From Leptospiraceae bacterium (GTDB lineage Bacteria; Spirochaetota; Leptospiria; Leptospirales; Leptospiraceae), in contig JADJSX010000013.1 in NCBI GenBank assembly GCA_016711485.1, positions 150,889 to 214,888 on the forward strand: a stretch of DNA of 64,000 nt, read 5' to 3'. A program made the translations under genes and the position numbers. Shown in pieces: positions 55,570 through 56,517 of the stretch. The notes under the pieces are model-generated. The model made no database searches, was not told the DNA's origin, and saw only the letters and a program-made list of their open reading frames with translations. Each line of letters begins with the position of its first letter. Position 1 is the first letter of the stretch.

Positions 55570-55846
55570 CTACCCACTTGATTTTTTGAATTCATTTTGT
55601 TTGATCAGCAATCGACGATCTATACTATCCACTAATACAAATAATTGAGAACGAGGGCGAGTAAATCCCATGTATAGAATCCTAGTTGTGTCGATGCCTT
55701 TGATACTTTCAATATCTATCATTATGACTATTGATTTTTCTAGTCCTTTGAATTTCCTTACAGATTCGAAAAGAATTCCATCTTGGTCATCGTGCTGATT
55801 TGTAATTTTATATGGACCTAAATTTTGCGAACCAGTTAAAATTGGA
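55570..55846 (-). pseudogene. C-terminal fragment of an SF1 (UvrD/Rep-like) helicase
   Basis: Minus-strand translation FESVRKFKGLEKSIVIMIDIESIKG...LYMGFTRPRSQLFVLVD equals helicase motifs V-VI; no upstream part; abuts IS3 fragment. Confidence 0.45.
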
Positions 55847-56104
55847 CAGACACCGTTTTTTTGGAATCGGAAGTTAGAGTAAATGAAAGGATGGCAAGAT
55901 GATAAGACGTAAGAATTTTAGCAATGAGTTTAAAGAGAAAATAGTGCTTGAATATACTTCAGGACAAAGCTCAGCAGCACAAATAGCACAGAGGGAAGTA
56001 TAACATCGCAGACTGTTCGTGATTGGGGAAAGGCATTCAATAATAAAAAATTTCAGAGTATGAATTCAACAGAATTTTCACCAAGAAAGCGAGTAGCAGA
56101 ATTA
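55843..56104 (+). mobile_element. IS3 fragment: partial duplicate of the 28886-30412 element (leader + 5' half of orfA with 1-nt deletion)
   Basis: Near-identical to RC of 30040-30310: ggacagacaccgtttttttggaatcggaagttagagtaaatgaaaggatggcaag ATG ataagacgtaag...; MIRRKNFSNEFKEKIVLEYTSGQSSAAQIAQRE then frameshift. Confidence 0.75.
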
Positions 56105-56160
56105 AAAATCACGGTTTGTATGGCAAATACTGAGAATGTGCAACGCCCAGAAGTAACTAA

Positions 56161-56379
56161 GCGGTTAGCGTAACCATGGTATGGGAAGACCTTATCAAAG
56201 CTGGTATCGTTGATCCCGCTAAAGTAGTTCGCTCTGCTCTTCAAAACGCTGCTTCTATCGGTGCAATGATCCTCACAACCGAAGTTACTATCACAGACAA
56301 ACTTGAGAAAGACGGTGGTGCTGGTGGTGGAATGCCTGGTGGTATGGGCGGAATGGGTGGTATGGGAGGCATGGTGTAA
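56161..56379 (+). pseudogene. groEL: groEL 3'-terminal fragment (last approx 70 codons incl. GGM tail)
   Basis: Translation ...[67 protein letters not shown] matches the chaperonin C-terminus; preceded by in-frame TAA and unrelated sequence. Confidence 0.8.
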
Positions 56380-56483
56380 GATCGTTTCAGGATTTGCCAC
56401 AGAGGCACTGAGACACAGAGAAGAGCGGTTTATCTGCATTTTGTGCTCGAAGATTTATCTTGTGGCAATCCAGCCTTAGCCGC

Positions 56484-56517
56484 GAAGCCTCACTGGAGAC
56501 AGTGGGGCTTTTTTTGT
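56484..56517 (+). terminator. rho-independent terminator (retained groEL terminator)
   Basis: gaagcctcactg-gagac-cagtggggctt followed by ttttttt. Confidence 0.8.

Follow-up and report, generated by a model that had tools for sequence, protein, structure and literature searches.

A stretch of 64,000 nucleotides (nt) from the genome of a Leptospiraceae bacterium (contig JADJSX010000013.1; below, the window, with positions counted from its first letter) carries, 5′ of dnaE, a run of sequence in which the tail of a helicase gene is followed by a piece of an IS3-family insertion sequence (IS), and this in turn by the 3′ end of groEL with its terminator. How did these pieces come to lie side by side, and does any of them still work? 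We compared the window with fetched related loci and contigs, designated L001–L175. These ~950 bases, at the edge of a defense island specific to the strain, are a genuine yet ordinary genomic scar, and no functional protein, be it a helicase, a transposase, or a chaperonin, can arise from any of the three remnants. As to its history, we regard it as reasonably probable, though by no means settled, that the scar is the decayed left edge of the island, where a helicase gene was hit by an IS, an illegitimate join followed, and the groEL tail arrived as the passenger flank of the defense cassette.

The Left Boundary of the Defense Island

The boundary lies between positions 55551 and 55552, 101 bp upstream of dnaE. 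A very close strain, represented by L001 (a Logan contig, run ERR1352927), encodes an identical 1165-aa DnaE and follows the window from 48720 to 55551 (6.8 kb, 99.3% identical DNA); beyond that point it carries cstA and two STAS genes instead. Because so close a strain loses homology at 55551, the DNA from 55552 rightwards is a strain-specific island. The initial annotation had seen here a recombination scar and an island border next to a defense locus, and had proposed a comparison of synteny around dnaE in related strains; this part of it stands, since cstA lies directly upstream of dnaE in L001, other neighbors are found there in further lineages, and the defense genes follow rightwards in the window. 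No compositional signal marks the island, the G+C content being 0.33–0.40 on either side of the boundary.

The neighbors upstream of dnaE differ in four Leptospiraceae lineages (the island described here, cstA, STAS genes, and a 225-aa gene). Each lineage loses homology at one shared nucleotide, ~101 bp before the dnaE start codon (~4693 in L001; ~9900 in L162 and L159), and the STAS–STAS–cstA block is oriented oppositely in L001 and L162. An inversion was considered as the origin of the boundary and rejected, as cstA is absent from the whole window.

Beyond the scar, the first gene of the island encodes a UvrD-like helicase fused to a nuclease (Pfam UvrD-helicase, UvrD_C, and PDDEXK_1; PADLOC models GajB-like and RTasHel); a type III methyltransferase gene split by an ISAs1 element and a gene for an HTH-ImmA/IrrE protein follow to the right. 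The independent contig L088 is 100% identical to the window over 56427–56728, terminator included, and 99.85% identical over 56524–57891. As this independent assembly runs from the terminator into the helicase-nuclease gene, their junction is real. Moreover, both L088 and L089 are 99.8–99.9% identical to the helicase-nuclease gene, L089, L086, and L087 cover stretches of 57725–64000, and pieces of the island thus recur at 99.8–100% in three other assemblies; in L086, a 182-aa gene and a ResIII gene come next.

The two halves of the methyltransferase gene occupy positions 59518–60603 and 61887–62642, and the ISAs1-family element positions 60579–61783, with 29-nt inverted repeats at 60579–60607 and 61755–61783. 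The ISAs1 transposase is itself split into open reading frames (ORFs) of 258 and 116 aa, and many fragmentary copies of the element are present in the same genome. L086 begins inside the right end of ISAs1, which is consistent with the same insertion there.

Composition of the Scar

All three pieces named in the initial annotation, that is, the helicase tail, the IS3 piece, and the groEL tail with its terminator, were identified far above chance, with corrected limits (Table 1). The first is a minus-strand remnant of a superfamily 1 (SF1) helicase gene. It carries SF1 motif V (FESVRKFKGLEKSIVIM) and motif VI (YMGFTRPRSQLFVL), and its residues 45–88 align with Pfam UvrD_C_2 (E 1.3e-5, 25.4 bits, slightly below the family cut-off of 27.4). 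A HMMER search among 1.84 billion representatives gave 141 hits at E<=1e-3; the full-length relatives (~550–570 aa) are 30–49% identical, and the tail aligns with their extreme C-terminus. The same representatives contain no close full-length relative, the near-identical entry being only an annotated 50-aa fragment, and neither a second copy of the tail nor the 5′ part of its gene was found in the window or in any fetched locus.

In six out of seven scanned full-length relatives, an N-terminal NERD nuclease-related domain precedes the SF1 helicase core, and the best PADLOC model for the tail is RTasNERD-Hel (positions 448–510 of 519, E 3e-6), which describes a NERD-helicase associated with defense reverse transcriptases. 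The source gene was probably of the NERD plus SF1 helicase type, with the NERD domain of the lost part deduced only from relatives at 30–49% identity. The Walker A/B ATPase core and the N-terminal NERD domain are missing from the remnant, and the sequence upstream of 55842 is occupied by IS DNA. NCBI annotates an internal ORF of 50 aa in the tail as a hypothetical protein (MBK8395917.1, locus tag IPL26_11855), the next gene being MBK8395918.1.

The IS fragment shares 97.8% identity over 268 nt with a full copy of the element (full-copy positions 30323–30056), which lies in inverted orientation 25.5 kb away. It had been described as internal to the element, which proved wrong: it begins exactly at the left terminal repeat, and therefore 55842/55843 is a genuine insertion junction. 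The ATG of its orfA is at 55899; its right limit falls within orfA and is uncertain by ~5 nt, as homology fades over 56104–56113. Two 1-nt length differences separate the fragment from the full copy. The loss of a G near 55993 breaks orfA of the fragment and agrees with the 1-nt deletion reported initially, while the other difference, located in an A-run, is a frameshift belonging to the full copy, not to the fragment. Once repaired, orfA of the fragment gives a peptide that scores 33.8 bits with HTH_Tnp_1 (cut-off 24.1, E 4.1e-8).

The full copy encodes an orfB product with rve (E 4.6e-14) and rve_3 (E 3.5e-16) domains, and orfB is missing from the scar. Its ends have the form TG...CA (TGGACAG... 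at 30323 and ...CACTCCA at 29104), of which the fragment shares the left one only, and it is flanked by a 3-bp duplication, GAA, at 30326–30324 and 29103–29101. As a possible site of programmed −1 frameshifting, an A-run near 30020 lies between the orfA and orfB frames of the full copy; the extra frameshifts in both copies may be sequencing errors. We take the accession block of the contig to belong to a long-read activated-sludge project of metagenome-assembled genomes (MAGs), and if so, single-base homopolymer frameshifts should be treated cautiously.

The third piece is the end of groEL. As initially stated, it comprises about 70 last codons, in fact 68, with the GGM tail and the terminator. 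Over 202 nt, it is 94.5–98.0% identical to intact groEL genes, each of which is preceded by a groES (Cpn10) gene (L168, L172, L092, L120, L130, L097, L165, L170, L154), the closest being L168 and L172 at 98%. A degenerate pattern for the tail peptide around WED retrieved 54 metagenome contigs, four of which (L092, L097, L120, L130) match 56173–56374 at 96.5–97.0%; L130 has complete groES–groEL. Such divergence of the tail, 2–5.5% from known alleles, does not go beyond the variation among groEL alleles in the clade; in the nearest strain, core DNA differs by only 0.7%. Four features set the tail apart from these alleles: three private substitutions, two of them synonymous and one changing P to L; the in-frame loss of 9 bp from the GGM repeats; a 3′ untranslated region (UTR) unlike that of the relatives; and a truncation that leaves nothing 5′ of the T codon of TMVWED. 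The match to Pfam Cpn60_TCP1 covers profile positions 450–489 of 490 (26.3 bits, under the cut-off of 34.3), and the complete ~545-aa groEL frame with apical and intermediate domains is not present.

No other groEL sequence occurs in the window. A search with the 72-aa tail protein returned short fragments only, at most 85% identical; a contig scan for the genome's own groEL gave 78% as the best among the matches listed, and the search with full-length GroEL did not exceed 92% identity. P0161 was rejected as a candidate for the genome's own GroEL, as its organism context is a different one. In four Logan assemblies (L002–L005), a frameshift divides a Leptospira-type groEL into ORFs of 485 and 66 aa, and split genes of this kind account for the crowd of short “GroEL C-terminal” entries in the protein database.

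Between the groEL stop codon and the terminator, the UTR of the relatives is replaced by an imperfect hairpin (fold of 56377–56525, z = −3.9). Its core of ~31 nt (56391–56422) occurs once in the window and recurs at 93–97% identity as inverted pairs in L097, L120, L154–L157, and L175; hence, the hairpin is a member of a small repeat family. The family core is GGATTTGCCACAGAGGCACTGAGACACAGAG, and in the relatives the inverted pairs are situated just past a kinase gene (copies at 1239–1269/1375–1405 in L097, 10752–10782/10888–10918 in L120, and 15639–15669 in L154–L157). A 24-mer from the hairpin of the scar is absent from the JGI metagenome contigs.

The terminator stem-loop (56484–56511) has 12 pairs, six of them G–C, and a loop of four, and is followed by the T-run TTTTTTTG. 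It is 97–100% identical to the terminators behind intact groEL in L092, L130, and L097, and behind a groEL remnant in L175. Homology to the groEL loci stops just past it, at 56523. No Rfam family matches the scar region. The terminator is likely the only part of the scar still working, and it would probably stop transcripts arriving from the IS stump, or from further left, before the helicase-nuclease gene.

About 64 nt (56109–56172) separate the IS piece from the groEL piece. Continuation of the IS was tried as a source of this filler and rejected (p ~0.45); for decayed groEL, local alignment to upstream groEL codons gave p ~0.065. The part next to the clean homology may derive from the groEL codons immediately upstream, scrambled by small indels: anchored global alignment of 56150–56172 to L092 gave p ~0.003 for 23 nt, a stretch chosen post hoc, and weaker values for longer stretches. 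Among all fetched loci, the filler has no match except the 10-mer AACGCCCAGA, at 56142–56151. A 128-aa antisense ORF spanning the IS/groEL junction has no protein record anywhere.

Table 1. Features of the scar and of the compared sequences. Positions refer to the window unless a locus is named.
Feature	Location	Strand	Evidence or content
Conserved dnaE upstream (promoter) region	55451–55551	−	Match to L001 up to 55551
Short G+C-rich hairpin, terminator-like, overlapping the stop codon of the helicase remnant; followed on the + strand by a T-rich tract	55559–55576		Terminator scan
SF1 helicase 3′ remnant, last 90 codons and stop	55570–55842	−	UvrD_C_2 match, C-terminal alignment to relatives
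IS3-family left end: terminal inverted repeat TGGACAG..., leader, ~70 first orfA codons	55843–56108	+	Homology to full copy
Filler	56109–56149		No significant match
Possibly groEL-derived stretch, scrambled by small indels, colinear with the codons next upstream of clean homology	56150–56172	+	Anchored alignment
groEL 3′ remnant, last 68 codons including GGM tail and stop (56377–56379)	56173–56379	+	DNA identity to intact groEL
Imperfect ~82-nt hairpin, similar to repetitive extragenic palindromic (REP) sequences or miniature inverted-repeat transposable elements (MITEs), replacing the UTR of relatives	56390–56471	+	Fold, recurrence of core
groEL intrinsic terminator and final bases of groEL-locus homology	56484–56523	+	Terminator scan, conservation
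UvrD-like helicase fused to PD-(D/E)XK nuclease, 928 aa, first cassette gene	56729–59515	+	Pfam, PADLOC
Full IS3-family copy, 1220 bp	29104–30323	−	orfA HTH, orfB rve/rve_3; reference for the fragment
Diverged copy of the non-coding module	38949–39087	+	Between fatty-acid desaturase gene and P83/100-like gene (core-type genes)
Module copies in relatives	L156 7389–7546; L166 7660–7817; L169 6946–7103 and 9541–9697; L171 7486–7643; L175 9350–9538		
groEL-to-kinase interval: empty	L097/L174		
groEL-to-kinase interval: 4.4-kb PvuII-type restriction–modification (R-M) island	L120 (900–4850), L154, L155, L157, L167, L170, L173		
groEL-to-kinase interval: 1265-aa gene and PvuII-type R-M island	L165, L168, L172		
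groEL-to-kinase interval: rearranged, no groES–groEL within 10 kb	L156, L166, L169, L171		DUF1016, sometimes Tn5-like transposase, PLDc_2, SAP-domain genes

The groEL-to-Kinase Interval and Detached groEL Tails in Related Strains

In L092, L097, and L130, a ~1880-aa kinase/sensor gene is situated ~170 bp or less past the groEL terminator. Among strains whose kinases are 99.8–100% identical, the interval between groEL and this gene exists in several states, from empty to island-bearing and rearranged (Table 1). As these comparisons indicate, the interval is an insertion hot spot for R-M and other defense cassettes. The groEL genes of these strains are mosaic, with blocks of 0 and blocks of 5–10 differences per 150 bp, a pattern that island exchange through homologous recombination, anchored in the conserved flanks, would be expected to produce. 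The suggestion made at the outset, that the groEL tail could matter for homologous recombination, fits the relatives, as a mosaic groEL flanks the island hot spot there. The hot-spot strains do not belong to the species of the window: their DnaE is 95.5% identical to that of the window, and dnaE has other neighbors in them. In L175, the interval holds a large island with SNF2/PLD, Eco57I-like methylase-nuclease, and AAA_21/RloB genes.

A second groEL remnant, consisting of the last 133 bp with the UTR and the terminator, stands directly upstream of a cassette or of the kinase gene in four independent JGI contigs (L156, L166, L169, L171) and in a MAG of another species (L175, GCA_016718635.1). 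Its truncation point is identical in all five contigs, which represent two species. From these loci, detached groEL tails at island edges are seen to be recurrent in this clade.

Left of the 133-bp remnants there is a conserved non-coding module of 140–190 nt, with a sharp 3′ end at CGGAACGCCCAGA; its copies share the segments GATGCGTTAGGGATC, GAGCCCGACG, and CGGAACGCCCAGA, with variable hairpins in between. In L169, the unit of module and groEL tail is present twice, as direct repeats of ~343 bp (94% identical) around a PLDc_2/SAP cassette. The module has no Rfam family match and is absent from IMG/VR, where 28 seed hits are chance matches; its consensus fold, computed from four sequences, was uninformative. 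The only known RNA in the window is one tRNA (22162–22245), the scar and the module being without significant match. A run of G and C homopolymers in L175 (GGGGCCGGGGGGCCCCCCCCCCCCCCCCCCGGGGGGGGGGGG, ~9050–9110) is probably an artefact of long-read consensus.

The 10-mer AACGCCCAGA of the filler also ends the module where it abuts the groEL remnants of L156, L166, L169, L171, and L175. That filler and module share it (p ~0.004 by shuffling) is suggestive only. One could speculate, with considerable doubt, that the groEL tail and a module ending in AACGCCCAGA form a recombination or attachment unit that captures, stacks, and moves defense cassettes, and that the window holds a trimmed copy of this unit, carried with the cassette to its place beside dnaE.

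Origin of the Scar

The order of events that we infer is as follows. An SF1 helicase gene, probably of the NERD plus helicase type, would have stood at the end of the island, reading towards dnaE, and an IS3-family element would have inserted into it, leaving the clean junction 55842/55843. A later illegitimate join or deletion would then have eliminated the remainder of the IS together with whatever DNA adjoined it, fusing orfA at about codon 70, via the filler of ~64 nt, to what is left of groEL, its last 68 codons. This tail, the 3′ UTR, and the terminator would be passenger DNA brought in by the helicase-nuclease/type III R-M cassette, which most likely came from a groEL-downstream site of a donor in this genome or in a relative. 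The tail most likely travelled with the cassette, because the hot spot lies behind the same terminator and because tails recur at island edges in the relatives; on these sequence comparisons, it appears better explained as a carried flank than as a simple local duplication.

The involvement of the IS is more limited than initially supposed. An IS3-mediated deletion is not shown, as the other end of the fragment lies inside orfA, unlike the product of an adjacent deletion made by transposase. Thus, the join in the scar is not a transposase product, because it falls inside orfA rather than at an IS end. Of the initial interpretation as a whole, the scar and the island boundary are retained, whereas the internal IS piece and the IS3-mediated deletion are not.

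Several observations weigh against the carried-flank history. The left-hand junctions (55551/55552, 55842/55843, and ~56108–56173) are present in one assembly only, and the right end of the island is beyond position 64000 of the window. In no fetched locus was the cassette found behind an intact groEL. The genome's own intact groEL is not among the sequences compared either, and the tail may be a copy of it or an import; the 550-aa GroEL type is absent from the protein collection searched, and the exact look-up of the L130 GroEL was empty. Finally, the 64-nt filler has no significant match.

Could the tail be the trace of site-specific integration instead? Integrative elements carrying a groEL-tail copy of their own might target the 3′ end of groEL, each integration leaving a displaced tail at the far end of the element, and the window would then contain a decayed attachment-site remnant. 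The recurrence of groEL tails at island edges in two species agrees with this, as do the ~343-bp units flanking the PLDc_2/SAP cassette of L169 as direct repeats, the presence of AACGCCCAGA just left of groEL-like sequence both in the window and in the loci of the relatives (p ~0.004), and the precedent of staphylococcal phage-inducible chromosomal islands (PICIs) at the groEL 3′ end (PMC8125051). However, neither an integrase nor a recombinase was found in the visible 8.4 kb of the island (55552–64000) or in the 10-kb flanks of L154–L157 and L165–L175, and there are no groEL-tail repeats or attachment-like direct repeats within 55400–64000. The truncation points also differ, lying 133 bp before the stop in the relatives and 200–223 bp before it here, and most of the related structures are explained by homologous recombination of a tail remnant with an intact groEL in donor DNA. 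We consider an attachment-site origin unlikely.

A local duplication, in which the tail would have been copied from the 3′ end of the genome's own groEL during an IS3-driven rearrangement, with no link to the origin of the cassette, seems to us distinctly improbable. It would account for the contact between the IS stump and the groEL tail, for the position of the tail within the allele pool of the clade (98% identity to L168 and L172), and for the place of the event, as the region upstream of dnaE is a recurrent synteny breakpoint. Yet it leaves aside that groEL homology ends right after the terminator, exactly where the cassettes of the relatives insert, and that the join is inside orfA and hence not made by transposase; moreover, three private substitutions and a 9-bp deletion are much for a local copy, given only 0.7% difference in the neighboring core DNA.

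The junctions might also be products of the assembler or of chimeric reads. The window does come from a MAG, its frameshifted transposase ORFs suggest homopolymer errors, and the left-hand junctions are without independent support. Still, chimerism is very improbable, because wrong joins arise in assembly where two sequences have a repeat in common, which is not so for IS orfA and groEL, because both pieces are diverged and carry changes of their own (the IS fragment is a copy with 97.8% identity and indels, not the sequence of the full copy, and the groEL tail has private changes and adjoining filler), and because the flanks are reproduced elsewhere, the right-hand join and the island body at 99.8–100% in three other assemblies, and the dnaE side in L001. 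The initial annotation would have preferred chimerism had relatives carried an intact gene continuous with the fragments; instead, their intact groEL loci run into the kinase gene and not into the island of the window.

That either short ORF, the unannotated 67-aa frame of the groEL tail (56176–56379) or the 50-aa frame of the helicase tail, is expressed as a micro-gene with a role of its own can hardly be credited: both have an in-frame ATG, the former at 56176, and NCBI annotates the latter as hypothetical, but no Shine–Dalgarno-like sequence is visible before 56176, the 67-aa product is absent from a collection of 15 billion proteins in which the 50-aa product is a singleton, the remnants of the relatives are cut at another point, and neither fragment retains the domains on which chaperonin or helicase activity depends.

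Comparison With Known Systems

The scar is a further example of a known phenomenon, with the recurring groEL-tail boundary as its mildly interesting feature. Its closest counterparts are IS-truncated pseudogenes at the borders of genomic islands, where, as here, an IS3-family element enters a gene and is later truncated itself, leaving non-functional stumps at the edge of accessory DNA. Nothing essential differs, except that the second truncation here, falling inside the IS, would be an illegitimate join and not an adjacent deletion made by transposase.

Integration hot spots lie between conserved core genes and show elevated homologous recombination in their flanks. The groEL-to-kinase interval is similar in both respects, with different defense cassettes in near-identical strains and a mosaic groEL flank. 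In the window, by contrast, the hot-spot flank stands apart from groEL and is joined to an IS stump beside dnaE.

IS3-family elements of the IS1397 type insert into REP or palindromic units. The full IS copy at 29104–30323 resembles them, residing in the loop/stem of a perfect 21-bp palindrome, whereas the copy in the scar lies within coding sequence, with no palindrome. The palindrome has the form CTTACTTTTTTCTTTTCTTTC / TTGG / GAAAGAAAAGAAAAAAGTAAG (29081–29103 and 30324–30351), and a closely similar one occurs in L175 near 9140–9190; the two apparently belong to a REP-like repeat family that serves as a target for the IS. The ORF adjoining the full copy (830 aa, 30755–33247) has Major Vault Protein shoulder and repeat domains and an SPFH/Band 7 domain.

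The element e14 and phage 21 integrate into icd of Escherichia coli, duplicating the 3′ end of the gene. There too, the 3′ end of a core gene, cut off and displaced, is retained as a pseudogene bordering the inserted element; however, these elements supply a replacement 3′ end by site-specific recombination, which for the scar is only a rival reading.

Staphylococcal PICIs integrate at attB in the 3′ end of groEL, the last 18 bp of which overlap the attachment (att) site (PMC8125051). The Staphylococcus aureus pathogenicity islands (SaPIs) and other PICIs, as well as SeCISE48, have in common with the loci studied here that accessory or defense DNA lies directly behind groEL and that the end of groEL is part of the boundary (PMC8125051). 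PICIs, however, have a tyrosine integrase and an att core of ~18 bp and leave groEL intact, whereas the Leptospiraceae remnants have no integrase in sight, measure 133–223 bp, and are detached from groES–groEL, and homologous recombination in conserved flanks explains the data. If the groEL tail and its module were a true attachment unit, groEL-targeted integration of islands would be known from two independent cases, the staphylococcal PICIs being the first.

For the genome itself, the left border of the defense island is now fixed at 55551/55552, and the three ORF-like pieces of the scar should be annotated as pseudogene remnants rather than genes. More generally, the scar may serve as a worked example of how the conserved tail of an essential gene, together with its terminator, can travel with accessory DNA, and the groEL-to-kinase interval of activated-sludge Leptospiraceae appears as a natural hot spot at which R-M and other defense cassettes are swapped between strains and species.

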